This document shows, in pieces, positions 3,272-46,815 of a stretch of 64,000 bases of DNA (positions are counted from its first letter, which is position 1; every line of letters starts with the position of its first letter). The notes beneath the pieces are model-generated. The model was not told the DNA's origin, ran no database searches, and was given only the letters and a program-made list of their open reading frames with translations. The DNA comes from a virus (lineage: Duplodnaviria > Caudoviricetes). The DNA is taken from positions 7,679 to 71,678 of IMG/VR virus record IMGVR_UViG_2885972705_000001; one strand, written 5' to 3'. A program made the translations under genes and the position numbers.

Positions 3272-4035
3272 GCTTTCCACCGTCCAATTGCGACAAGCCA
3301 GGTTGAGTACACGCGGCTTGGCTGTGCCACCGCCGCAACATTGAAGTAAGACCCCTGCGAGGCGCTGGCAAAGTTGTTGCTTAAAAACGACACAGCATTG
3401 GGGGCTTTCGCGGACCCAAAAAAGGTGGGTGCCGCATAGAATGCCTGAGGATAATTCCAGGAAAATGTGCTGCCGATAAACAACCCAGTCGCAGCCGAGG
3501 AAACCGTATCTGTGTTGTCGACGGTCCTCGTGCAAATCAGCGTCCCATCCAGAAACTTGGTGTAGTCGCCGTTGGCGTTAGTGCCCCGCTCAATGATCGC
3601 GCCGGCGGAGTTCAAGCCAACAACGTCAGCTACGGCTGCAGAACCCAGCCCAAGCGCGACCCTGGCCGCCGTAGCCGTTGTGGCGCCCGTGCCGCCCTTG
3701 TTCACCGGCACGATGTTCTCGGTTGCGACTGTGCCCAGGCTTGCGAGCGTAGCGCCCCAGTCATTAAGGATCTGTCGCACCTGGTCGGCCAGGCCCTTGG
3801 TGTAACCCTGCACCGGGACAATCGCGTACGTACCGGCTGCGGCTGTAGCGCCACGGTAATTCGGGGAGATCGACAGGACGGTGTTGCTGGCGACGTTGGT
3901 GACCTCGTACCAACCACCGTCAGGACCGAGGAACGCATCGCCTACTCGGGTGTTGGCGACAAAGGATGTGCCAGCGCCTGTGACGGTATTGTTATTCAAA
4001 GTTACTGCAACGGTGCCGGTTCTATACCAAGGCAT
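3268..4035 (-). CDS. Tail fibre protein
   Basis: MPWYRTGTV N-terminus, VPVNKGGTGAT, IIERGTNANGDYTKFLDGTLIC, AIGRWK C-terminus. Confidence 0.85.
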   Translation of the reverse strand: MPWYRTGTVAVTLNNNTVTGAGTSFVANTRVGDAFLGPDGGWYEVTNVASNTVLSISPNYRGATAAAGTYAIVPVQGYTKGLADQVRQILNDWGATLASLGTVATENIVPVNKGGTGATTATAARVALGLGSAAVADVVGLNSAGAIIERGTNANGDYTKFLDGTLICTRTVDNTDTVSSAATGLFIGSTFSWNYPQAFYAAPTFFGSAKAPNAVSFLSNNFASASQGSYFNVAAVAQPSRVYSTWLVAIGRWKA

Positions 4036-4100
4036 ATTTTTCTCCAGGCAATAAAAAACCGCACTTGGCGGCTATAGAGTTCTGCTCGATCTGCAAACAG

Positions 4101-4757: not shown

Positions 4758-5095
4758 TATCGAAACCTCATAACAAGAAGTCTTTGCGGGCTCAGTCCGA
4801 TAGGACCCGTTGAGGTTGCAGGATTCCCAAAGTAAATAGTTACACCACCAGAAGAAACTCGCGGAGTGTATTGGATTGCATAGTTACTTTGCGCGGTAGT
4901 GTCGTACGCCGCGATAGGAATACAAACAGCAGAATGAGTTGATGGATCAATTCCGGGAATAGCGATATATCGAGTTCTCCCTGGCGCAGGAATGCCGGAT
5001 CGGACTATCTCCGAATAGACAATCCGCACAGTGAAGGACGTTTCATCCAGCTCAAGGAGGCCAGTCGGCCCCCATGTCCGATTTCCAGAGATCAT
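4757..5095 (-). CDS. Tail-tip associated protein
   Basis: Translationally coupled to the J stop. Confidence 0.6.
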   Translation of the reverse strand: MISGNRTWGPTGLLELDETSFTVRIVYSEIVRSGIPAPGRTRYIAIPGIDPSTHSAVCIPIAAYDTTAQSNYAIQYTPRVSSGGVTIYFGNPATSTGPIGLSPQRLLVMRFR

Positions 5096-8000
5096 GCGGA
5101 AAGATCCCCCCACTGGTAGCGCTTAACGTCATTTTCATCGTAAACCTTGCCGCCACGGTTATTGATGGTCTGGCGACCACCGCCACCAGTCGCGCTATTC
5201 AACTCGAACTCACCGGTGACGAAGTTGATCATCAGCCCCATCCTCCCGGGAACGTAGTTTTCCGACTGGATGCTCTGGGTCAGCTTTGCCACACCGATTG
5301 AAGCGTCCTGAATGAACGCCGAGTTCATGAACACCTGCCCGCCCTGCACCACAAACGGCGTGGTGATCGCCCCGCCAGCAATGGTGTTCACCACCGCAAA
5401 CCGATCAGCACTCACCACGAACTGGCTTTGCAGTAAGCCGTCGGCGTTCTGCTCGATGCCCAGGCCGATCCCCGCTGCCACGTACTGGCCGTTGGCGTTG
5501 ACCTGCATCTTCACCGCCCACATTGTGGACAGCTTGCCGTCGATGTCTGCTGTAGCCCTGGCCGTGACCTGGATCGACGCCTTGTTCTTCCAGTCGTTGA
5601 TGGCACTGGCCAGGTCGCCCTCATCCGAGCCGTCACGATCACCGCCGGCGATGGCTTCAATCGTGGTGGACTGGGATGCGATCGACTTGTTGGTATCAGC
5701 AAGCGACTGGGTGACGGTCTGGACGGCTGCCGAGTTGGTATCGACGTTGCTCTTAAGCTGGTCGATACGCTCAGTAGTTGCCAGCTTGTCGGTGGCCACC
5801 ACCTGCTCCAGCGTGGTCAGTGCAGCCTTGTTGGCCCCCACCGCCGCATCCAGCGACGTAGTGCGCTCAACCATTGCCCGGTTGTCGGAAGCCTGTACCT
5901 TCACCTGCTGCGCAAACTTGGCGGTGGCGTCCCAACTTTTCACCGCGTCGGCAAGGTCACCCTCCCCGTCATTCTCGCGCCAGCTTGCCTGGAGCGATTG
6001 CAGCGCCGAGGCGTTCGCTGTGACCTTGCCGTCCACGGTTTCGATTGAAGTCTTGTTCTGCTGGATCTGGAGTGCCATGGCCTGGGTTGTTTGGGCAATG
6101 GTGCCCATGTTGAACCAGTACTCGACAGCGGGCGGCGGGGTATCCACCGGTACCGCCTTGAGTGCCTGCCACAGGTTCTGCCCCGTGCGAACAATCTGCC
6201 CGGTGGTGTAGGTCTTGGTCGGAACGTAGACCAGGGCGTCCGTTACGTGGTCGATCAGGTCTTCCAGTTCCTGCTTGGCTTGCTCCAAACGATCATTGAC
6301 CGAGCCCGGACCGGAGCCGGAGATCAGCTCGATCTCCTCAAGCAGCTCCTTGCCCAATTCGGATTCGCCAATCTGGCCGGCGATCATCTCCAGAATCGGC
6401 GCAGCATTCGCGCTGGCCTGCCCCGGTACACCATTGACCACCGGATAGAACGGGCCGACGTTGCCGGTGCGGTCCACCAGGCGCGCCCAGAAGAAGAACT
6501 GCGCACCGGCCTTGAGGGCCTGCATGCTGTGGTTCGCCTGGGGGTAGGCCAAGTCGGCAAGCTTGGTGGCCACTGACAGGTCATTGGCTGGGCCGTACCA
6601 CAGCTCGGTCCGCTGGGTGTCCTCGGCACCGGGCGGGAAAGCCCACCGGATGCCGATGCCGAACAATTCGCTGGTGGTGGTCAGGGACGCAACCGCAGGC
6701 GGCAGGCCCACCTTCCCTTCCAGATTGGTCAGGTTGGAGCTCTTCCAGATCGACGAAATTTCAAAGGCGCTCACCGAGCGAACCCGGGCCAGATAGGCGC
6801 CAGAGTAGATGCCGGTGAGGTCCACGCTCGTCGAACCAGTGCGCTGCAGCTTGATCCAGTTGCCGCTGTCCTTGCGCCACTCCACGTCATAGGCGATCGC
6901 ACCCGAAACAGCAGGCCACGAGATGTTCATGGTGCTGATTGCCAGGCCTTGGTCCACGGAGTAGTTCGAGGTGATGCTAACGCTCGCCGGCGCCGGAACC
7001 ACGGTGATGGGTACAACACTGATCGGACGATCCTCCAGGCGCGCGCCGGTATCGATGTGATCGAACTTGCTCGGGTCGTACTGCACGGCCGAGATCTCGA
7101 ACACGCCGGCTTCCGGCCGGGCCACGCTCACCACGCGGTAAAGCGGGATGGCCAGGTCGTCTGCATCCAGCGCCCACACCAGTTCGCGCTCAGGCGGGAC
7201 GGAGTAGGCCAGGGTTACGGTGACTTGCCGGCCGCTGACCAGTTGCACGGTGCGGCCCTCGCACTTGCCATCGGGCAAGTTGAGGATTAGCCGGTCGCCA
7301 GGCTTGGCCTGGGTGTCGCGGTCCAGGGTGATGACCTTGCCATTCACCGCCGAGATGCGTCCGCCCACAGAACGGCCGGCCAGCAGTTCGTCAGCAATAG
7401 GGATCACGTAGCCGGGCAGCGGGATACGCCCGTCGAGGCCGACCTTGAAAGTGACGGCGCGGTCTTTGGAGTTCGTGAGCAGCGCCCACTTACCGCGGCG
7501 CTGCGCCTCCGACTCACGGGTGCAGCCGATGGCGCTGATCTCCAGCGGGTTGTCGCCGTAGCGCCGCTGGAGCTTCGAATCCGTGACCGCCGTGACATCG
7601 GTGTCGTAGTTGTTGGCCGGGTTGTCGTAGCTGATCAATGCCCGGGTGTATCGCGTGCGCTCCGAGGCGCTGGAGTAGGTGAACTTGCCGTCGATCACGT
7701 TCGCCCTGGTATAGGCGAAGTCGAAGTCGGTGGCGCGCGGCATGTCCGCCAGCGTGAAGACCTGGCCCTGCGCCCAGTAGGTCATGCCACGGTAGATCGC
7801 CGAGATATCGCGCAGCAGCGACCAAGCGTCAGCCTTGCTCTGCAGGTTCAAGTTGCAGAGGAAGCGCGGTTCCATGCCGCCTTTTCCGTCCGGCACCAAT
7901 TGGTCGCAGTATTGGGAAATACGATACAACTCCCAAATATCAACCATCCACGGCTTGATGCGACGGCCCAAGCCGAAGCGGTCGGCGGTGGTGATGTCGT

Positions 8001-8862
8001 AAGTCATCCAGACAGCATTGTCAGTCCATGCCTGCTTGAATGTACCGTCCCATATCCCGGTGTATGAACGCGACGCGGGGTCGTAGTTACTCGGTACCTG
8101 CATCTTCTTCAGCTTGGTCTCGACCGTGACGGCCGGGATGCTGCGGAACTGCTCGGCTGAAAATTCGATGTAGAGCAGCGCTGTATTTGGATAGCGAACC
8201 TTCGCATCGATCACCTCGGTGAAGCCGGCGATCTGCATGGTGTCGGAGATTTTGTTGTTGTTCTGGTTGATCGTCAGTCGCGTGATCCTCATCAGCCAGC
8301 CAGTGGTCGCCTTTGGAAGATCAATGCGGCGTGTTCGCTCGTACAGGCTGGTGGTCTTGCCGTCGACAGCCTCGCTCAGCACCTGCTGGTAGGTCCCACC
8401 ATCGGTGGCCAGCTCAACCTTGTATTCAATGCGGTACCCATTGACGTTGCCGCTAGAGTCCACCGACTGAAGCGCCGGCCACGCGAAACGCACTCGTACT
8501 GCGGAGAGCTGGGTGTTGCTAATGGCTCGGACCCACGGCGTACCGCTGCGCAGCTCGGTATTGATCGTTGTCTCGTTCTCGATCGATGGAATGCCCTGGA
8601 TATAGCTCTGATCCACGGCACCGGTGCGCCACTCCCACTTCACGTTCGGGAAGTTCATGTTGCCTTGAGGGTCTTGCAGGGGCGTGTTGTCGAGATAGAT
8701 GTCTTTGGCAGTTGGCGTGCCCTCGAACTCACCCTCGCCCACGGCAATGAGCATTTTTGCGATAGCAACAGAGCGCAGACTGTCCGGGGCCTCAGTCGGC
8801 GTTTTTGGTTTACCTTCGCCGCCTTTGGCGCCGTGTATATCGATGTTTTGTGCTGCGCCCAT
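5092..8862 (-). CDS. Tail tip / host-specificity protein J
   Basis: 1256 aa; GEGEFEG, YPNTAL, YCDQLVPDGKGG, FN3-like repeats, SQFVVSADRFAV C-terminal domain. Confidence 0.95.
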   Translation of the reverse strand: MGAAQNIDIHGAKGGEGKPKTPTEAPDSLRSVAIAKMLIAVGEGEFEGTPTAKDIYLDNTPLQDPQGNMNFPNVKWEWRTGAVDQSYIQGIPSIENETTINTELRSGTPWVRAISNTQLSAVRVRFAWPALQSVDSSGNVNGYRIEYKVELATDGGTYQQVLSEAVDGKTTSLYERTRRIDLPKATTGWLMRITRLTINQNNNKISDTMQIAGFTEVIDAKVRYPNTALLYIEFSAEQFRSIPAVTVETKLKKMQVPSNYDPASRSYTGIWDGTFKQAWTDNAVWMTYDITTADRFGLGRRIKPWMVDIWELYRISQYCDQLVPDGKGGMEPRFLCNLNLQSKADAWSLLRDISAIYRGMTYWAQGQVFTLADMPRATDFDFAYTRANVIDGKFTYSSASERTRYTRALISYDNPANNYDTDVTAVTDSKLQRRYGDNPLEISAIGCTRESEAQRRGKWALLTNSKDRAVTFKVGLDGRIPLPGYVIPIADELLAGRSVGGRISAVNGKVITLDRDTQAKPGDRLILNLPDGKCEGRTVQLVSGRQVTVTLAYSVPPERELVWALDADDLAIPLYRVVSVARPEAGVFEISAVQYDPSKFDHIDTGARLEDRPISVVPITVVPAPASVSITSNYSVDQGLAISTMNISWPAVSGAIAYDVEWRKDSGNWIKLQRTGSTSVDLTGIYSGAYLARVRSVSAFEISSIWKSSNLTNLEGKVGLPPAVASLTTTSELFGIGIRWAFPPGAEDTQRTELWYGPANDLSVATKLADLAYPQANHSMQALKAGAQFFFWARLVDRTGNVGPFYPVVNGVPGQASANAAPILEMIAGQIGESELGKELLEEIELISGSGPGSVNDRLEQAKQELEDLIDHVTDALVYVPTKTYTTGQIVRTGQNLWQALKAVPVDTPPPAVEYWFNMGTIAQTTQAMALQIQQNKTSIETVDGKVTANASALQSLQASWRENDGEGDLADAVKSWDATAKFAQQVKVQASDNRAMVERTTSLDAAVGANKAALTTLEQVVATDKLATTERIDQLKSNVDTNSAAVQTVTQSLADTNKSIASQSTTIEAIAGGDRDGSDEGDLASAINDWKNKASIQVTARATADIDGKLSTMWAVKMQVNANGQYVAAGIGLGIEQNADGLLQSQFVVSADRFAVVNTIAGGAITTPFVVQGGQVFMNSAFIQDASIGVAKLTQSIQSENYVPGRMGLMINFVTGEFELNSATGGGGRQTINNRGGKVYDENDVKRYQWGDLSA

Positions 8863-8921
8863 GCTTTTCTCCAGGCAATAAAAAACCGCCTCATGGGCGG
8901 CTGCGATGCTTAAAGTGGTGT

Positions 8922-9521
8922 CTACATCTGGTCTTCGGCGTATATCGCGGCGCTAATAATCGCGCCGCCGACCCTGCGCTTGCCGTAGCAGAGCGGGACC
9001 GGGTTGCCGGATGCAGTTGTGTTCTGCGCCGAGCCAAATGCATATCCAGGCTGGTTTTCGGGCGCAGCGCTCATCTTGAGGCCTGCCGCCTGCGGACTAA
9101 GCATTTGGATTACGCCCCCAGCAGCACTACCGATACCGCCCGCTATGAGGGCTGCGCCTGTAGTTGTTGTCGACCCGAACGCAAAAAAACCTACCACAAT
9201 CAATATGGCACCCAAAATGGTCTGCATCAGGCCTGCGCGCTTTCGGCCCGTAATTACCGGCGCTATACGGATTTCTCCGGAACCGCCAAATCCTAATTCT
9301 TTTTCTTCAAGATTTTTTGACCCTCGAAACACGGCAAACTCAATGCCGCGAGACTTGGCGTTCGACAGGAACCGCTCGAAGCCAGGGATCTGTACGCATA
9401 GTGCCTTGATAGCCTCGGCTGGGGACTTAACTGACAACCTGAAAGATCTTCCAAATTGCCTAAGCTGCCCATAAAGCAAGATGGTAGTCATCGGCTGATA
9501 ATTAATTGCGAGTGCTGACAT
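8922..9521 (-). CDS. Tail assembly protein I
   Basis: SPAEAIKALC, IRIAPVITG, GNPVPLCYG...GGAIISA. Confidence 0.92.
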   Translation of the reverse strand: MSALAINYQPMTTILLYGQLRQFGRSFRLSVKSPAEAIKALCVQIPGFERFLSNAKSRGIEFAVFRGSKNLEEKELGFGGSGEIRIAPVITGRKRAGLMQTILGAILIVVGFFAFGSTTTTGAALIAGGIGSAAGGVIQMLSPQAAGLKMSAAPENQPGYAFGSAQNTTASGNPVPLCYGKRRVGGAIISAAIYAEDQM

Positions 9522-9568
9522 GGTTTTCTCCAGGCGAAAAAAAACCCGCTGTAGCGGGCTTAATGGGA

Positions 9569-9970
9569 TCAATAAGCGGTAGCTGAAATATCTGGACCGC
9601 CGGGCGACATGGATATTCTTCTTCTCAAAACTTCTCCGCTTTTTATTTCGACATCGCGCTCAACCATCATCCCTCCCCCGCAAGCTGCGCTTGGCTTCGC
9701 GCCAAGCACTACTCGGCCGGCCTTAACACCAAACCTAGCCACCTCTCCCGAGGAGAATTCGGCAGCAAGCTCCCCATTGATATAGAAACGGTAATTGCAT
9801 CCAGATCCAAACATCCCGCCATCTCGGGTAACAATGAGTTGAGCATCGGACTTTGTAGCGAAGGCATAAAGCCGAGAGCTTGGCACCGGATCGGCCTTGT
9901 CGGCAGATATAGGCGAACTAGAGCAGCCGACCAAGCTCAAAATAAAAAAGAATCCTACGAACAGTTTCAT
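9569..9970 (-). CDS. Phage lipoprotein moron
   Basis: Signal peptide with LVGC lipobox. Confidence 0.8.
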   Translation of the reverse strand: MKLFVGFFFILSLVGCSSSPISADKADPVPSSRLYAFATKSDAQLIVTRDGGMFGSGCNYRFYINGELAAEFSSGEVARFGVKAGRVVLGAKPSAACGGGMMVERDVEIKSGEVLRRRISMSPGGPDISATAY

Positions 9971-10025
9971 GTCGCTCCCTCGTTGAGAAATGGCGAGACT
10001 TTATCACCAAGCAGAGAGCAACACG

Positions 10026-10044
10026 AAAGCCCGCAATGCGGGCT
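10026..10044 (-). terminator. Intrinsic terminator closing the RAMP/array transcript
   Basis: AGCCCGCA-T-TGCGGGCT hairpin followed by TTCGTGTT on the minus strand. Confidence 0.7.
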
Positions 10045-10104
10045 ATATCAATCGAAAACTTCTAACACTGCAATGCCTCCTCCAAGAAGAGACATTACGC
10101 TGTT

Positions 10105-10172
10105 ATCAGCCCATACCAAATCAAACCACACCCCGCCGGACCTAGCCGCGACTTGCCGGACCAGAACCTGCC
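10105..10172 (-). repeat. GGY-NN pentamer tract A
   Basis: GGC-AG GUU-CU GGU-CC GGC-AA GUC-GC GGC-UA GGU-CC GGC-GG GGU-GU GGU-UU GAU-UU GGU-AU GGG-CU GAU. Confidence 0.92.
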
Positions 10173-10224
10173 AGCGGCTTCTGCCACCGCAATGCCGACT
10201 GATTCCAATCGGCATTACGCTGTT

Positions 10225-10287
10225 GTCAGCCCTCACCTCGACATGCCCGACCTAACCAGGCCTCGCCCAACCTTGTCTCGCCACGCC
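10225..10287 (-). repeat. GGY-NN pentamer tract B
   Basis: GGC-GU GGC-GA GAC-AA GGU-UG GGC-GA GGC-CU GGU-UA GGU-CG GGC-AU GUC-GA GGU-GA GGG-CU GAC. Confidence 0.92.
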
Positions 10288-10338
10288 ACATGATGCGTTC
10301 GCACCGCAATGCCCTCTCATAGAAAGGACATTACTCTG

Positions 10339-10800
10339 CTATTGACCAAGAGCCTTTCGGGTCATGCCCTGGAGCGCGGAAAACTTTGCTACAGCGTCAA
10401 GGTTTGCACGTCGCTGATCATCGGTAAGCTCCGTTATCCTCAGATTCCTCAGCTTTTCTCCACTCCCGCGAAACGCCTTCCGGACATTCCGGCCCAGCTC
10501 ACTTACCGCAACTTCTGTCTGCTCATGAGGCGGCACCCAGCGGTAACCACGGCCGCGCACAGACTGAAGGCAGACCTGATGATGCTTGAGCAAGTCCGAT
10601 TTAAATGCCTCCACGTTCGCAAGCCATTCGAACTGACGCTCACGAAACTTCTCAACGGTCAGCGACTTCGAGTCAGTCATGGAAGGCATTCCGAAACGCG
10701 CCTCCAACCACTCATGCCCGACCAGATCGCCGTATTTGAATTCCTTGAGGAAGTCATCAACAGCTTGCTTGTAGCTTGGGTGCTTTGTCAGTTCAGACAT
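10339..10800 (-). CDS. Accessory protein of the RAMP/array locus, winged-helix-like (153 aa)
   Basis: Start MSELTKHP overlaps the RAMP gene end; LQSVRGRGYRW wing-like motif; helical C-terminus. Confidence 0.7.
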   Translation of the reverse strand: MSELTKHPSYKQAVDDFLKEFKYGDLVGHEWLEARFGMPSMTDSKSLTVEKFRERQFEWLANVEAFKSDLLKHHQVCLQSVRGRGYRWVPPHEQTEVAVSELGRNVRKAFRGSGEKLRNLRITELTDDQRRANLDAVAKFSALQGMTRKALGQ

Positions 10801-11368
10801 ATGCCACCTCGAAACGACCGAAGCGCGGCCGGTATTCACAGACGCCAATCAACAGTCCTGAGTCGGTGATCGCCTTTTTTGCTTCCTCTATGTTGAGTAC
10901 GTCAGCGTTGATCGCGACTTCCAGCTCGACGCCCCATTCAAGAAAGATTGGCCGGTAACGCATGATCTTCGCCTGCCCAACCTTAACCCCGCGACAATCA
11001 ACGAATCGCTGATCCTCCCAAAGAGAATCGGGAGTTGTCGGCCCAGAGAACTCCAGCTTTGCCTTGTCAGTCATTACGACCGCTCCGCGCTTCCATTGCG
11101 TGCCCAGCTTCTGAAGCTTCGCGCCAGCCAGGAACGTCGCATCGAAGTTAGCGCCGGGTACAAAGAATCCGAGCTTTTCATCGTGGTAAGCGCCGGCGAT
11201 AAATTCAGAGCGAGCGATGGCAAGATGATCGTCGTCCGTCTTCTTGCGCTTTCCGGTCAATTCCTTATGAGCCTTTGTTGCGGGATTCAAAGGGTTGGCC
11301 AGCTTGTCGCTGTGCATCATCAGCGGAGACGTGCCGGTAATTTTTAGCGTGACAAGTTCCATGCTCAT
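10793..11368 (-). CDS. Minimal RAMP/Cas7-like RNA-binding protein (Vipr-like)
   Basis: LKITGTSPLMMH (RAMP first strand), FFVPGANFDATF (like IPGSSLKG), C-terminal glycine loop GLLIGVCEYRPRFGRFEV. Confidence 0.8.
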   Translation of the reverse strand: MSMELVTLKITGTSPLMMHSDKLANPLNPATKAHKELTGKRKKTDDDHLAIARSEFIAGAYHDEKLGFFVPGANFDATFLAGAKLQKLGTQWKRGAVVMTDKAKLEFSGPTTPDSLWEDQRFVDCRGVKVGQAKIMRYRPIFLEWGVELEVAINADVLNIEEAKKAITDSGLLIGVCEYRPRFGRFEVAYV

Positions 11369-18005: not shown

Positions 18006-21000
18006 CAGCGCCCCTTGATTGCTTTGTTGATGACGCCGCCCTGGCGCATGTCCTTCGTCCGTAGTTCCTGATACCTCTGCTCGACGAAGGTCGCCAACTC
18101 TTTGCCGAACAGGTCGTAGCCGGGATCATCGGATGAGGACGACGTGTTGCCGTCTCCGTCGATATGCACCTCGACATTGATCTGCGTGCCGCCACCGCCA
18201 CCGCCGCCCATCGCCATAACGCCAAGCTTGCCGCTGGAGGTTCGCGTGAGTGGCATGATCGCCTCTTCGCCCGCCTCACCCATGATGCCGGTCTTGCCGT
18301 TGCCCATACCGAACGCCTTGGGCTTACTGACGACAGAGTTGGTGAAGGCACCGCCGTCGGCGAACATCTGCACGCCATTGGCCCAGGCACCACCGTCCGC
18401 CTGAAAGTAGGCGCTGGAATAGCCAGCCTGCGATGCGCCGAGGTTTGACGACGTGGCACCGGCAGACCCGGCCGCCATGCCATTGCCACCTCCGGCCGCG
18501 CTGCCACCGAAGTAACTCGCAGCCGCGCCCACCAGACTGCCCAGCAATGCCGAGCTGGCCTGGCGCGTAGCAATGCGCGCCATATCCGCCAAGATCGATT
18601 TGGTGAAGTCAGAAAACTTCGCCTTCCCCGTGAGCACGAAATTGGAAACCGAGTCCTCCATGGTGCCGAAGGCGTTGCCAAACAGGCTTTTTGTCTGACC
18701 GGCGATGTTCTGCGCCGAGTCCAGGTAGTTTTCCCAGGCCGCCGTAGCGCCCTTCGTCCAGTCTCCTTGGGCGGCCTCCACATCCGCGTAGTTCTGCCGA
18801 ATCTGGTCGGTAGCCTTCTTGTTCGCGTCGGCGAGCGCCTGCGATTTGCGCGTGAACTCTTCATCCGACATGTTGCGCGACGGATCGGAGCGCTGATTTT
18901 CCAGTTCCAGCGACTGCTGAGCAAACCGGTCTTGCTGGCTGTTCAGTTGCCCGTTGAGCGCGTTCTGGCGATCACCCTGGCCGACGCCCAGCACGGCGCG
19001 CTGCCCGGCCAACTCCAAGGCTCGCTGTTGCTGCCCCAGTGCCTGTACGTACGAGCTGATCGCCCGCTCCTGCTTGGCAAGTCGCCCGACCTCGTTGGTC
19101 GCCAACACCTCAAGCTGGCTATCGGCATCCTTCTGCGCCTTCACCATCCCTGCGCGCGCGTCGGCGATCTTCTGGTCTAGCTGGATGCTTTGCGCGGCTG
19201 ACGTGGTTTTCTTGCCCTTGGCGGCCTCCAGCGCAGAGATCTCGGACTCGTACGCGGCCGTTACCTGGTCATGTTCGTTGCCGATCAGCGCCTGGCGACG
19301 CACCAGGTAGTCGGCCTCGGAGATGAGGCCGGCCCTCTGCGCCGCGTCCAATTCCTTCTGGTAGTTTTTGTAATCGGCTGCGATGGCTGCCAGGTTGTTC
19401 TTGGCGTCGTTGAAGCCGGTCAGGTCAACCTGACTGCCTGCCGTTTTCGGGTCTTTGTTCTTGGTCTCAAGCCCCTTCAGTAGCGTGTCGTAAGCACCAC
19501 CAGAGAACTTGGCGCCGTCGAAACTGACACCATCAAGCAATGGTGACTTCTGCCCGGTTTTCTCGGCGTTTTCGTAAAGGGCGCGGAACTGATCGTTGAG
19601 TTTCTTCAGCCCAGCCTGACGTTTGGCCAGAGGGTTGACGTTATCGAGCTGAGCATCCAGCGCCCGCTGAGCGTCAATGGCCTTCTGATTGGCGTCAGTG
19701 TTTTCACCGGTGGCGATTGCCAGATTTGAACTGGCCGCCTGCCTGGCTTTCAGACCTGCAAGTTTCTTTTCCAGAGCCTCGGTCGAGTCGTCATGCTCGC
19801 CGGTGCCCAGGCCCAGCGCAGTGTTGAGTGAGCTGAGCCCGTTGGAGATTGCGCCAGCTACACCACCACCCTTCCGGGTATCCAGCACCCGCTGAGTGAT
19901 CTCGATCTGCTTGGCCAGGTCGGGGAAGATCTCCGACCGGACTTCGGCGTACGCGCCTTTGATGGCGGTCTTGATGTTGTCCCAGTCGCGCTCAACGTCG
20001 GATAGCGACTCGCGGTAGGTCTTCAAGCGCGTCAGCGCAGCCTGATTCAGATCCTCGCTGAGAACATCCAAAGCGCGCTGGCTTTCGCCTTGGTCATCCA
20101 GCCCCTTGATCACCTGGTACTGCTCAAGAGTGAGCAATCCATACTGGCTGCTGATCTTTCCGGCTGCCTCCGTCGCGGTGTCGCCGGCGGTGGCAAAGGA
20201 CTTAGCCAACTCGCCCGCGCCCTGCCCAGTGACCTCGCTGACCGCCGCGGCAGCTTCGGCCAGATTGCGCATCTGCGTTCCGCTGGTGGCTGCGCCAGAC
20301 GCCAACGACACAACCGCCTCCCGCGCGCCGGTCAAGTTCCCGGTAACGCGGCCGGCACCGTCAGCCATGTCCTTCAGGCTCGCAATGGTCTGCCCTGCAC
20401 CGTTCGTGCCGCCATTGATTGCAGCGTTGAACTCGCGCGCCTGCTTCATCGCGTCGAAGTAGGCGTAGCCAAGCGATCCAATAACAGCGACCAGCAGGCC
20501 GGCCGGGATCAGCATCCCCGCAAGGCTCTTCGCCGACTCACCGGCGCCGGCACCCAGTTGTGCAATGGCCCGCGCCCCGCTGCCCAGATCGCCCGCCTGA
20601 ATGGCGTTGACGAGCTGCATCACGTTTTCTTGAGCCTGGCGCGTACCCAGTTTGAGCTTGTCGAACGCGCCAGCAGTCTCAGTCAGGCCAGACCGATCCT
20701 TTCCTATCTTCGCCAGCGCCTCGTTGTAACGCTCTGCGTCGATCTGACCGGATTTATGCAGGTCGTTGAGCGCCTTCTCCTGGGCTTCCAACTTCGCCAG
20801 CTTGGCGGTGACCGGATCAATCCCGTTGACCGTGCGTTTCAGCGCCTCAATCTGACGATTTTCCGCCTCAATCAGTTTCTGTTTCTGGGCCAGTTCCTTC
20901 GCTTCTGCCTTCTCGATCTTGTCGTAGGCCTTGCCCAGTTGGTCCTGGTACTTCGCTTGCTCCTCGATCGTGACCAGGCCACCCTTGCGAGCGCGCTCCA

Positions 21001-34097: not shown

Positions 34098-34384
34098 GCG
34101 CTCGACTCCGTGGGGCATGTTTGAAATAAGTCAGCCCCAGCAGCACTCCCAGCTCGGAGCAATGGGTGTGGTGGGGCCGAAAACGAAAAGGCCCCGATCA
34201 ATGTCGAGGCCCTGAATAGGTGTGCGCGTCTTTCCGCGCTGTCTGCCGACGCCACCCTGGAAGTCAGGTTTGAACAGGGCGCACGGGCTGCCGGTATTTT
34301 TCCGTAGCGCTGCACTACCGGCTTATCAGCGTTCAGGCATCCCCCGAAGGGCGACCCTGGCTGTGTCGAGCCTGAATCAGAAAT

Positions 34385-35591: not shown

Positions 35592-35960
35592 AATCCGCAA
35601 ATTCCTTTTGCTAAATCGCCCTTTATTTGGGCAATAAAAAACCCGACTCACTGGCCGGGTTTTTGGTATCAATCTCGATACGCGCAAGATCGACATGATG
35701 GGTAAATAGTCTCTCACTTTCTCACTCGAAGCAACAACTGTTTGCCGTCATATGCCTTTTGGGTTGCCACTGACAGTTGAACCCACGTTTTTCGAGTAGT
35801 GAATGCGGACAGCCTTGGGAAACCATTCGTACCCGCACGAACTCACCCTCACCACCAACCCCACACCGCGTAAAGCTATGAACGTCATAGACAAATGCAG
35901 TCGTAGCGGTGCGGAGCATCTGATACCTTCTTAAAATAGACGTTCCAAGCGAGGGTTATC

Positions 35961-37742
35961 ATGGACGCCAAAGGCCCAGTGCTAGATCTGGATTACGAAG
36001 CGATACGCTTAGGTCGAGTGGCGGAGCTATGTCCTCACGATGACCAGACGGACGATGTCTTCGAAAAAATAATCGCCATGACTTCGGAATACTTCAACGT
36101 CCCGATCGCTCTGATTTCAATCGTAGGCGAACACGAACAGTGGTTCAGGGCTCGGATAGGAATAGATGAGAAATCAACTCCCCGCGACGTATCATTCTGC
36201 GCCCATTCTTTGCTTGATAAAGAACCGTTAGAGATTCTGGATGCAAGAACGGACGAACGCTTCAAAGACAACCCTATGGTGGCCGGCCCTCCGTACATAA
36301 GATATTACGCTGGCGCACCACTGCTGACAGACGACGGGTTCTCACTTGGCAGCCTTTGCATAATTGACACTCTTCCCAGAGTTGCGATGAACAGCCGAGA
36401 CGCAAGAATGCTCGTTCATCTATCTGAACTCGTGATCATGCGTGCCATGGGGTTACGGTCTCGCAACTACATCGATCAACCTACAGGCCTATTCAATCGC
36501 CTTCGACTGGAGGAAGATATACGACAGGTCAGTAATAGTGGAACAGCGCACAACCTTTATGCTGTAGATGTGATCTCGCCTAAATTCCTAAATGATGTAG
36601 TTAAAGCACTCGGATACAGCTTTTCACAAAACCTGATGCTGAACGTCAAAGCTCGCTTGCGTTCCCTAATACCAAAACAATGCATTCTGTACAAAATTAG
36701 CCCCACACGTTTTGGCTTTCTTCTTAATGCAGAAGATCCAATCGAAAGCCTGTGTATGAAAATACTTTCAAGCTTTGACGAACCGGTTGATTGCCAGGGA
36801 ATTCCCATCTTAATGCAGACTGGAATAGGTGTATTACACATTGGCGATCCAAAGGAAAGAGACTGGCTACGTCTTGTGGTCGGCGCTGCCGATGACGCCA
36901 GGGTTAGAAATCTAGGCTGGGCTTTGTATCAACCTGAGCTGGATGCTGCGCAAAAACGAGCGTTTGTGCTCCTAAGCTCATTGTCAGAGGCTGTCCGCTC
37001 GACTAACCAATTCAACTTAGTATTTCATCCAAAAATCAATTTGCCGGATTACTCTTGCGCAAGTGCTGAAGCACTGATTCGTTGGGACCACCCTACCCTT
37101 GGCCCTATCGGTCCGGCAGAGTTTATACCTCTGGCTGAAAAAACTGCACTAATGCGATCTATAACCTTTTGGGTGCTTGATGCGGTTACAGCGCAGGCAA
37201 AGGAATGGAAAAACAAAGGAATAAGATTAAGAATCGCAATGAACGTAACTGTCGGCGACCTTGAAAACTCAAAATTCGTGGATCGAATTGTAGAACTCAT
37301 AGACGAAAGCGAACTTGACCCAAAAGCATTAGAGCTTGAGTTCACTGAAAGTATACTTATGACGGACCCCAAGACCGTACTAGCTCAGTTAGAGCGCGCG
37401 AGAGGACTGGGCATTGAAGTATCTATAGACGACTTTGGTACTGGATACAGCAACTGGTCGTACCTGAGACAGCTTCCAGTTAACACAGTTAAGCTCGATC
37501 AATCACTCATCAACAACCTCAGTACAAATGAAAAAGACAAACGACTCGTTAAGACGCTGATCGAGCTCGCTAAAGGGCTAGGGTATAGGGTTGTAGCAGA
37601 GGGCGTTGAAACGGAAAAGACCCTTTCCTTGATTAGCCGGTGGGGCTGCACAGAAGCCCAAGGTTACTTGATCACTAAACCTCTGAGCGCGGCGCTACTG
37701 ACCGAGTGGTTGGAACAGGGAGGCTTTCGGCCCGCGCTCTGA
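35961..37742 (+). CDS. GAF + degenerate GGDEF + EAL c-di-GMP phosphodiesterase
   Basis: SFCAH and IRYYAGAPL (GAF); SPTRF in place of GGDEF; AEALIRW, ELEFTE, IDDFGTGYS, AEGVE, QGYL. Confidence 0.92.
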   Translation: MDAKGPVLDLDYEAIRLGRVAELCPHDDQTDDVFEKIIAMTSEYFNVPIALISIVGEHEQWFRARIGIDEKSTPRDVSFCAHSLLDKEPLEILDARTDERFKDNPMVAGPPYIRYYAGAPLLTDDGFSLGSLCIIDTLPRVAMNSRDARMLVHLSELVIMRAMGLRSRNYIDQPTGLFNRLRLEEDIRQVSNSGTAHNLYAVDVISPKFLNDVVKALGYSFSQNLMLNVKARLRSLIPKQCILYKISPTRFGFLLNAEDPIESLCMKILSSFDEPVDCQGIPILMQTGIGVLHIGDPKERDWLRLVVGAADDARVRNLGWALYQPELDAAQKRAFVLLSSLSEAVRSTNQFNLVFHPKINLPDYSCASAEALIRWDHPTLGPIGPAEFIPLAEKTALMRSITFWVLDAVTAQAKEWKNKGIRLRIAMNVTVGDLENSKFVDRIVELIDESELDPKALELEFTESILMTDPKTVLAQLERARGLGIEVSIDDFGTGYSNWSYLRQLPVNTVKLDQSLINNLSTNEKDKRLVKTLIELAKGLGYRVVAEGVETEKTLSLISRWGCTEAQGYLITKPLSAALLTEWLEQGGFRPAL

Positions 37743-45954: not shown

Positions 45955-46072
45955 GCGCGAATGCGCTGACTCTTCAGCTTGTCATACCCAGCCCAGCGCC
46001 GGGCTTCTCGTTCCTAGTGATCCCCTACCCTGCTATGGTGGCGCCCTCTGATCGCAATGGAAGCATCGAAGA

Positions 46073-46399
46073 ATGGACTCATGGAAGGCTCTGGCCATCG
46101 CCCTACTGGCATCGGTCAGCACACAGGCCGTATCAGGTGATGGTGCCAACCCTATCGCTGCCGCGATATTCATCACAATTTCCTCGCCGACCATTTTAAT
46201 TGGCGCGACCACATCTCTCACGACCGATCCGCCAAAGATTTTCAAGTCAGCCAAAAATGACGCCTTGGCGTTCATTGGTTCGGACGGAGAGATACGGGGT
46301 GCTGAGTTTGAACAGGCGTCCAGATACTATCGTTCGGCCTACAAATCACCTCATATGTCTGACATGCGACTGGCCCAGGCGATAGCGACCTCGTTTTGA
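46073..46399 (+). CDS. DUF2388-like exported protein
   Basis: AKNDALAFIGSDGEIRGAEFEQA, SDMRLAQAI. Confidence 0.8.
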   Translation: MDSWKALAIALLASVSTQAVSGDGANPIAAAIFITISSPTILIGATTSLTTDPPKIFKSAKNDALAFIGSDGEIRGAEFEQASRYYRSAYKSPHMSDMRLAQAIATSF

Positions 46400-46491
46400 T
46401 GCCCGCTTAAGACGGACTTTCGCCTTCTCCCAGCAGGAACGCACTCTGCTATGGTAGCGGCCCTCTCTGATCGGAATGGAAGCATCGCAGC

Positions 46492-46815
46492 ATGGACTCA
46501 TGGAAGATTGTAGCCGCAGCCCTCATGGTATCGATCAACGCTCATGCCTCTGAGGGGTCCGACGACTCCTATAACAACTCGATGCTGTCTGTACTGATGG
46601 CTCCAAGCTACACCGTTGCAGGAACTACCGGGCTCACCATGCTCGCTACTAATAACTTCAAGCCTGCAAAGGCTGACGCGCTCGCCTTTATTGGCTCAAA
46701 CGGTGAAATACGCGGTGCCCAATTTGAACAGGCGGTGCGCTTCTACCGTACGACCTATGCACCACCGTTGATGAATGATCAGCAGCTCGCCCAGGCAATC
46801 GTAAGTACGTTTTGA
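46492..46815 (+). CDS. DUF2388-like exported protein (second copy)
   Basis: AKADALAFIGSNGEIRGAQFEQA. Confidence 0.8.
   Translation: MDSWKIVAAALMVSINAHASEGSDDSYNNSMLSVLMAPSYTVAGTTGLTMLATNNFKPAKADALAFIGSNGEIRGAQFEQAVRFYRTTYAPPLMNDQQLAQAIVSTF

Follow-up and report, generated by a model that had tools for sequence, protein, structure and literature searches.

We analysed a 64,000-nucleotide stretch of the IMG/VR virus record IMGVR_UViG_2885972705_000001 (positions 7,679 to 71,678), hereafter the window, which is a lambda-like Pseudomonas prophage. Between its tail genes K and I lies what sequence comparison identifies as a Viral Interference Programmable Repeat (VIPR) locus, with the genes vipr and vap and two guide RNAs (vrRNAs). 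The guides spell out parts of two tail genes, J and I, in the form found in related prophages, and the prophage's own copies of these genes differ from the guides at two of the bases-in-pairs that are read at each site. J, the tail tip or host specificity gene (5092..8862, minus strand, hereafter (-); 1256 aa), is followed in coordinate order by the tail assembly gene I (8922..9572 (-), 216 aa, phrog_32). A 6.5-kb island separates I from the tail genes K and L. Within the island are a lipoprotein gene (9569..9970), three strong hairpins in a non-coding stretch, the genes for two proteins that we call p169 and p191, a Bro-N antirepressor gene and Arc-like genes; p169 and p191 fall in no Pfam family. 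Over J and I, region 5000-12000 matches the Pseudomonas phages phiAH14a (86%), PseuP_222 (79%) and Medea1 (72%). Domain searches of the island proteins, Pfam and PADLOC included, found no nuclease domain, and a homing-endonuclease model for the island was dropped for that reason.

As described in the discovery preprint, VIPR systems combine a small ancestral RAMP protein (Vipr) with an accessory gene (vap) and with vrRNAs of about 100 nt, which carry 9-16 YNNGG repeats and a structured tail. The NN bases recognise double-stranded DNA and one target base, usually a codon wobble position, is skipped. Targets may lie on either strand and need no protospacer-adjacent motif (PAM), and the outcome is transcriptional silencing of competing phages, which in type II VIPR means repression rather than cleavage (10.64898/2026.04.26.720920). 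A second preprint describes one Vipr protomer per repeat, with GGY sequestered (10.64898/2026.04.26.720927).

The gene for p191 (10793..11368 (-), 191 aa, phrog_4652) is the candidate vipr. The protein has no Pfam or PADLOC match, and its AlphaFold2 model (pLDDT 72.1, pTM 0.64) has two Foldseek matches in the PDB at E <= 0.001, the better being a Csm complex chain (Csm3/Cas7; E 9e-4, probability 0.99, TMq 0.46). Among the top fold matches listed, almost all are Csm, Cmr, Cas7-11, type VII or Cascade entries. The predicted model thus gives moderate support for a Cas7-like core, with TM scores below 0.5. A tblastn search pairs p191 with a gene of phiSUSP1 (42.2% identity, 98% query coverage, E 8e-45). 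GGY/NN tracts stand on both sides of the phiSUSP1 gene, one upstream and three downstream, as in the discovery preprint, and because of this layout we take the gene to be the named vipr. Directly downstream of vipr in the window, p169 (10339..10848 (-), 169 aa, phrog_5926) is 24% identical (E 9e-12) to the gene that follows the vipr homologue in the Felix-O1-like phage Mijalis, and its homologues hold the same position in Medea1 and LESphi2; by homology and position it is a putative vap1. On the strength of these two homologies we assign the locus to VIPR, and to its type II kind. The sequence features expected of such a locus are all present: a RAMP protein, homology to phiSUSP1, an adjacent vap-like gene, vrRNA tracts with tails and protein-coding targets read with a one-nucleotide skip. 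The same arrangement of tracts and hairpin tails recurs in 83 carrier loci. It is not a class 1 CRISPR-Cas locus: there is no tandem or direct-repeat array of the CRISPR kind, no Pfam or PADLOC match to a Cas protein among the island proteins and no contiguous match to the stretches between the hairpins. Rfam has no family for the guide array.

Both vrRNA tracts lie downstream of vipr and vap. The first, vrRNA-J, is a run of 13 NNGGY pentamers (10225..10289 (-); core pentamers 2-10 at 10240-10284) with the NN series GT GT GA AA TG GA CT TA CG AT GA GA CT. The second, vrRNA-I, has 14 such pentamers (10105..10174 (-); core pentamers 3-11 at 10120-10164). Each is followed by a conserved hairpin that forms its 3' tail, at 10189..10218 (-) for vrRNA-J (GTAATG...GCATTGC; three matches against 0.03 expected) and at 10070..10098 (-) for vrRNA-I, beyond which there is a terminator-like hairpin at about 10019-10044. 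A further tail-like hairpin stands directly 3' of the vap stop codon (10306..10334 (-)). It is preceded by no repeat tract, is found in all carriers inspected and may be the 5' boundary or processing site of the first vrRNA. The window holds no third NNGGY tract in its 64 kb. In the distant phage Mijalis, too, G/T-rich periodic tracts with a hairpin come after the gene homologous to that of p191.

A period of 5 nt (GGNNN) runs through the sequence between the hairpins. To decode it, k bases out of each 5 or 6 were read in every phase, and the result was searched against relatives. Read three bases in five and reverse-complemented, the vrRNA-I stretch matches 24 of 24 bases in the I genes of three related loci (L003, L006 and L014), and the match extends to 27 contiguous bases. 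Read as dinucleotides, units 3-11 of vrRNA-I give in reverse complement AA AC CC GG TA GC TT GG AG, which are codon positions 1-2 of N-T-P-G-Y-A-F-G-S in the sense of I. Units 2-10 of vrRNA-J are codon positions 1-2 of V-D-K-W-E-L-Y-R-I of J in gene sense, so vrRNA-J would pair with the template strand. In both targets the skipped base is codon position 3. Searches for contiguous guide matches to the sites or to relatives found none, whether by mismatch and two-block scans, typed patterns with presumed guide codons, local and gapped alignments, blastn-short or motif greps; they failed because the guide code is non-contiguous. RNA duplex energies ranked the J site about 6300 of 6354, which reflects only its low G+C.

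The resident sites depart from these guides in a particular way. Codons 305-317 of J read TGG ATG GTT GAT ATT TGG GAG TTG TAT CGT ATT TCC CAA, the target site being the nine codons V307-I315 that begin with GTT and end with the second ATT (7918..7944 (-)). Of the 18 bases read by the nine-dinucleotide core, 16 match, and the two mismatched dinucleotides are AA>AT (K309I) and CT>TT (leucine CTN>TTG). The I site (9029..9056 (-)) encodes N-Q-P-G-Y-A-F-G-S and reads, with flanks, GAA AAC CAG CCT GGA TAT GCA TTT GGC TCG GCG CAG, the site running from AAC to TCG. Here 14 of the 18 read bases match and two dinucleotides are fully mismatched, AC>CA (T>Q) and AG>TC (serine AGY>TCG). All remaining differences of the sites from those of relatives fall at skipped third positions.

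A first-pass annotation, made from the letters of the window, had proposed just this: two core dinucleotides changed per site, one by the rare synonymous route through codon positions 1-2 (leucine CTN to TTG in J, serine AGN to TCG in I) and one by an amino acid change (K/N to I in J, T to Q in I). Each of these changes is borne out by the decoded guides. The same annotation also pointed to a run of T-ending codons at the J site. The run is real, with 6 of 12 codons against 13.5% in J overall, which ties the maximum for J. As a signal it was rejected, because permutation places it within chance (P = 0.68 over the whole of J, 0.27 over the first 420 codons); these bases are skip bases, unread by the guide, and therefore no part of an escape. 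No internal promoter was found at this AT-rich patch of J. A stretch of the tape-measure gene at 18664-18723 that resembles the I site was judged a chance likeness.

To place the resident alleles among relatives, 372 loci were fetched by several pattern searches, and overall fractions in this set are not population frequencies. Within it, L001 is a database locus 100% identical to the window and stands for the resident prophage; beside L001 and L002 there are 78 species-representative loci (L003-L080), 77 of them readable at J codon 309. The remaining locus, L063, is out of frame in translation, yet it bears the exact J pattern. All nine dinucleotides of the J guide are matched in 187 of the 372 fetched loci and in 69 of the 78 representative loci; for the I guide the corresponding figures are 68 and 46. 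Exact matches in such numbers go beyond chance. Codon 309 of J is lysine in 77/77 readable representative loci other than L001 and L002, and K309I is the only departure of L001 from the consensus of at least 90% in about 430 aligned J residues. In IMG/VR the lysine pattern occurs in at least 120 contigs and the isoleucine pattern in five.

The recoding proposal would fall if the resident codons were the majority allele in phages that lack the system. They are not: ATT at codon 309 is found in 0/77 and TTG at the leucine codon in 5/77, and glutamine together with a TCN serine at the I site in 0/65 non-carriers, glutamine at the T position occurring once (L077). A third change in I, K>Q, stands just after the site, where 65/65 have K or R.

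The mismatched alleles go with the system. Among the 80 representative loci, p191, p169 and the array occur together only in L001 and L002, the two with variant sites. Of the contigs with the isoleucine allele, namely the five from IMG/VR together with L001 and L002, all six that can be assessed carry the system, the seventh (L371) being without upstream sequence. The Ant/Bro-N protein was considered as a correlate of this allele and set aside, as similar Ant genes (64-67% identity) occur in lysine-allele loci without the system. Arrays were decoded in the 83 carrier loci. All seven loci that hold a J guide (L001, L002, L205, L207, L247, L218 and L241) have two or three mismatched dinucleotides in their own J. 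Of 16 carriers without a J guide and with J in view, four are perfect targets (L081, which is Medea1, L208, L244 and L248), one has a single mismatch and eleven have two or three. These eleven are L221 and ten loci with a J of the type MVDRWEMYR. The enrichment of mismatches in guide carriers, which the first-pass annotation had named as a check, is thus seen in the guide holders, next to guide-less carriers that keep a perfect J target.

The large MVDRWEMYR clade (L285-L364, from IMG/VR) departs from the J guide at the two codons that are also changed in the resident prophage (K>R, L>M). It was tried as a second escape lineage linked to the system and rejected: of its 83 contigs 80 were analysed, and p191 is present in only 2 of the 30 whose sequence covers the K-to-I interval. 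The allele is a clade trait that is not tied to the system, and may record an old escape or a coincidence.

The relationship between guide and own site extends beyond J and I. Guides were called heuristically, as 7 or more pentamers with two or more of the three GGY features; this yielded 165 distinct guides, 48 of them with an exact eight-dinucleotide target in the locus set. Their targets include J, I, the C-terminus of I (IYAEDQM*), the tape measure (AFSSMEDAVANF), the L protein (IWWQGNEY), the conserved motifs LQQGGQLKDM and LDQKTNEDG, and vipr itself (PATKAHKELT, AAKLMRYR). Where a guide had 10 or more target loci (24 guides), we compared the best site in the guide's own locus with the best non-self site, a pair being informative if the own-locus site translates to the same motif. 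In 12/12 informative pairs the own site has at least two more mismatched dinucleotides. The pairs come from L001, L002/L207, L205, L081, L214, L221, L224, L231, L237, L245 (two guides) and L248, and their targets are J, the tape measure, the LQQGGQLKDM and LDQKTNEDG proteins and vipr. The other guides of the 24 are uninformative, their own target gene being outside the fetched stretch or not recognisable.

The vrRNA of Medea1 (L081) at 6577-6646 spells AFSSMEDAVANF of the tape measure and matches 27/28 bases in relatives; Medea1's own tape measure, at about 1254, reads AFDSMDDSLANF and has four mismatched dinucleotides against its own guide. A guide of L221 matches the vipr of the window at 11246-11284 (-) (PATKAHKELTGKR) over ten consecutive dinucleotides (23/26 read bases), and the vipr of L221 itself has three extra mismatches at the site of this guide. 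The single vrRNA called in L208 spells IYAEDQM*, with 68 target loci. The I gene of the window ends in the same peptide at its 3' end (8922-8950 (-)), which may be a target of this guide.

The isoleucine patch does not appear to have arisen by repeated mutation. It is found together with TTG on three J backgrounds (TADRF..KPWMVDIWELYRIS, TSDRF..KPWMVDIWELYRVS and VNDRF..RPWQVDIWELYRIS). Set against L001 in 30-nt windows, the isoleucine phages agree at 26-30 of 30 bases in the patch and lysine-allele phages at 20-24, and in the flanking windows the former are no closer to L001 than the latter. The isoleucine phages also share the skip-base states GAT and TAT, which the guide does not read. We take this as a sign that the patch had one origin and was spread through short recombination tracts. 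Between L001 and L002, identity is 97-100% across the array, I and the opening 200 nt of J, and about 80-93% farther on. The resident I allele is divergent overall, at most 84% identical to others. Guide and patch are about 1-2.4 kb apart, and they appear to travel together by recombination.

Looking across these observations, we consider it the best explanation, with a probability of about two in three, that the guides are directed against J and I of relatives and that the prophage's own copies have been altered at the read bases so as not to be targeted. Each Vipr protomer would bind one repeat, hide GGY and present NN to double-stranded DNA, with every third target base skipped, and binding would silence transcription. 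This mechanism was established for the SUSP1 and P. fulva systems and is carried over here by likeness. What the vrRNAs spell is conserved in J and I among related lambdoid prophages of Pseudomonas, which would make the vrRNAs weapons against the tail genes of those relatives. With no PAM, the distinction between self and non-self must lie in the target sequence itself. The prophage needs J and I too, and at each site its copies have two read dinucleotides in a derived state, one changed by the only synonymous route at codon positions 1-2 and the other by an amino acid change. These mismatches would spare it from its own guides and from identical guides of rivals. From the sequence we infer that a site with two mismatched dinucleotides is no longer bound, and that the mismatches came about through selection for self-avoidance. 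The recoding may have followed the arrival of the guides, or guide and resistant patch may have moved in together.

Several observations weigh against this reading. The resident J site still agrees with its guide at 16 of the 18 core bases. When the whole 13-dinucleotide J tract is considered, the resident site matches 18/26 bases and the best non-self site 21/26, a small margin. The resident I site retains six consecutive matched dinucleotides (P G Y A F G), and an 18-bp footprint, which has the length of such a run, is mentioned for a SUSP1 vrRNA (10.64898/2026.10.15.759431). In the main text of 10.64898/2026.04.26.720927 the word 'mismatch' does not occur. Single mismatches exist in phages without the system, both in the five TTG loci mentioned above and as TCN serine at the I site in 9/65 non-carriers. 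Two carriers, L208 and L247, have the I variant (Q + TCA/TCG) and no I guide. The guide caller may miss guides. Finally, the carriers are related and their counts are not independent events; the isoleucine allele rests on about three backgrounds.

We weighed four other explanations. In the first, the variant J and I alleles existed beforehand and only guides that did not match self were retained, so that self-avoidance would be real and yet the genes never changed under guide pressure. In its favour, L218 and L241 have J guides that aim at another J clade, and their own J sequences (VDKWSLYQI and VDKWSLYEI) differ in ways typical of that clade, as does VDKWGLYQI in L221; moreover, lineages differ at the T/Q position of I, where T, L, A, M, S, R and Q all occur. 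Counter to this, the pool of free-standing isoleucine phages that such filtering requires was not found, IMG/VR giving five contigs with the isoleucine pattern. The isoleucine allele was never seen apart from the system, neither in the 77 representative loci nor in the six assessable contigs, and K309 is otherwise invariant. We regard such filtering of guides as an unlikely account of the resident sites.

The second explanation holds that identical J and I guides in other phages drove the variants and that the prophage's own guides are secondary. The first-pass annotation had named this beside selection to avoid self-targeting, and although the latter is what the comparison across phages supports, the two cannot be separated; L208 and L247 bear the I variant with no I guide. 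L001, L002, L205 and L207 have the same vrRNAs, and guides against the vipr of other phages, the vipr of the window being one such target, show that there is an arms race. If rivals were the driving force, however, escape alleles should be visible among the main targets, the phages without a system. These remain perfect J targets in 69 of 78 representative loci, and the double-mismatch alleles are confined to carriers. As the main cause, pressure from rivals seems improbable to us.

A third possibility is that the patches are lineage markers which hitch-hike with the nearby VIPR locus and that the mismatches have no functional effect. The near identity of L001 and L002 from the array into J, the divergence of the whole I allele and the chance level of the T-ending run speak for such linkage. 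It does not account for a J patch that is shared across backgrounds when its immediate flanks are not, for changes that hit the read dinucleotides at both sites, and likewise in all 12 informative pairs, or for the fact that K309I is the sole departure from consensus along about 430 residues. We consider neutral hitch-hiking very unlikely. Least credible of all is tuned self-regulation, in which the prophage's VIPR complex would use the partial matches to keep its own late tail genes under weak repression, as might be wanted in lysogeny: resident sites do keep 7/9 matched dinucleotides and type II VIPR represses rather than cleaves (10.64898/2026.04.26.720920), but perfect matches to relatives and imperfect ones to self are the opposite of what a self-regulator needs, and the same pattern is seen for guides against many different genes.

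Returning to self-avoidance, the linkage of guide and patch raises a broader idea, which we offer tentatively. A vrRNA and a resistant allele of its own target may form a linked cassette of weapon and immunity that spreads among lambdoid Pseudomonas prophages by short recombination tracts. A recombinant that kept the guide and regained the consensus site would silence itself, and the result could be a replacement, in the manner of a gene drive, of residues that are otherwise invariant, such as K309 of J. The six-fold codon families of leucine and serine, and presumably arginine, might then be a general loophole that lets a target evade a wobble-skipping guide code with its protein unchanged.

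If the self-avoidance reading is correct, the window offers a natural case in which phage guides are aimed at relatives' copies of genes that the carrier needs, and in which the carrier's copies show which changes are tolerated. It would also provide a mismatch threshold taken from nature, two of nine read dinucleotides per site. Odd substitutions at invariant residues of phage structural proteins could reflect selection by RNA-guided silencing rather than protein function, and scanning carriers' own genes for such patches could help to predict vrRNA targets and mismatch tolerance.

Elsewhere in the window we noted features that are separate from the VIPR locus. A 30-40-nt element occurs in four minus-strand copies at gene junctions of the tail region (2679-2718, 4033-4062, 8857-8896 and 9516-9555) and combines a terminator-like hairpin with a Shine-Dalgarno sequence and a start codon. 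Rfam's Proteo-phage-1 RNA is found at 34286-34366 (-) with 75.7 bits against a gathering score of 42. At about 35960-37700 the prophage has a stretch of low G+C (0.48-0.51) with a long plus-strand reading frame, in which a DDFGTGYS-like motif, of the kind found in EAL domains, can be picked out by eye. Two direct repeats of 90 nt (46040-46129 and 46459-46548), 78% identical, span the starts of two small adjacent plus-strand open reading frames.

The system itself is known. What is new against earlier descriptions of VIPR is the recoding signature, and it lends itself to testing. In the discovery preprint no guide matched its own contig at >=80% of NN, perturbed NN pairing abolished silencing, and wobble skipping is argued to defeat synonymous escape (10.64898/2026.04.26.720920). 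A later preprint finds that vrRNAs which target vrRNAs have lower self-match scores than non-self scores, links this to the avoidance of autoimmunity, and argues that escape needs changes at positions that determine the amino acid (10.64898/2026.10.15.759431). The leucine CTN/TTR and serine AGY/TCN switches set a limit on the argument from wobble skipping, as they are synonymous and yet alter read bases. The texts of the three VIPR preprints (10.64898/2026.04.26.720920, 10.64898/2026.04.26.720927 and 10.64898/2026.10.15.759431) contain no mention that we found of recoded structural genes in carriers, of the six-fold route through leucine and serine or of linkage between a guide and a resistant site, and their supplementary target tables may list J and I targets.

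The locus shares with the type II VIPR of the SUSP1 and P. fulva prophage clades the small RAMP protein and accessory gene, the YNNGG arrays with a structured 3' tail and the wobble-skipping targets on either strand. It also shares the use of competing phages as targets, some guides being aimed at other vipr genes. The difference is that here the guides aim at orthologues of the carrier's own essential J and I, whose resident copies are altered at the read dinucleotides. With the Cas7/Csm3 filaments of class 1 CRISPR-Cas there are likenesses in the predicted fold of p191, in one protomer per RNA repeat unit, in periodic flipped bases and in structured elements between guides. The VIPR locus differs in being without cas1/cas2, other cas genes or contiguous spacers, and its guide period is 5 nt with two read bases, compared with 6 nt and five read bases in class 1 CRISPR-Cas. 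CRISPR escape mutants and tolerated self-targeting spacers resemble the resident sites in that point changes in the protospacer end recognition while the gene still works. Such changes usually fall in the PAM or seed and can be synonymous at wobble positions, whereas escape from VIPR would go through amino acid changes or six-fold codon families because wobble changes do nothing. A further parallel lies outside RNA-guided systems. Free-standing homing endonucleases and poison-antidote pairs direct a weapon at a conserved site in the essential genes of relatives, linked to the carrier's resistant allele, and the two move together by recombination. The present locus differs from homing endonucleases in that no nuclease domain was found in the island and in that the published mode of type II VIPR is silencing, not cleavage.

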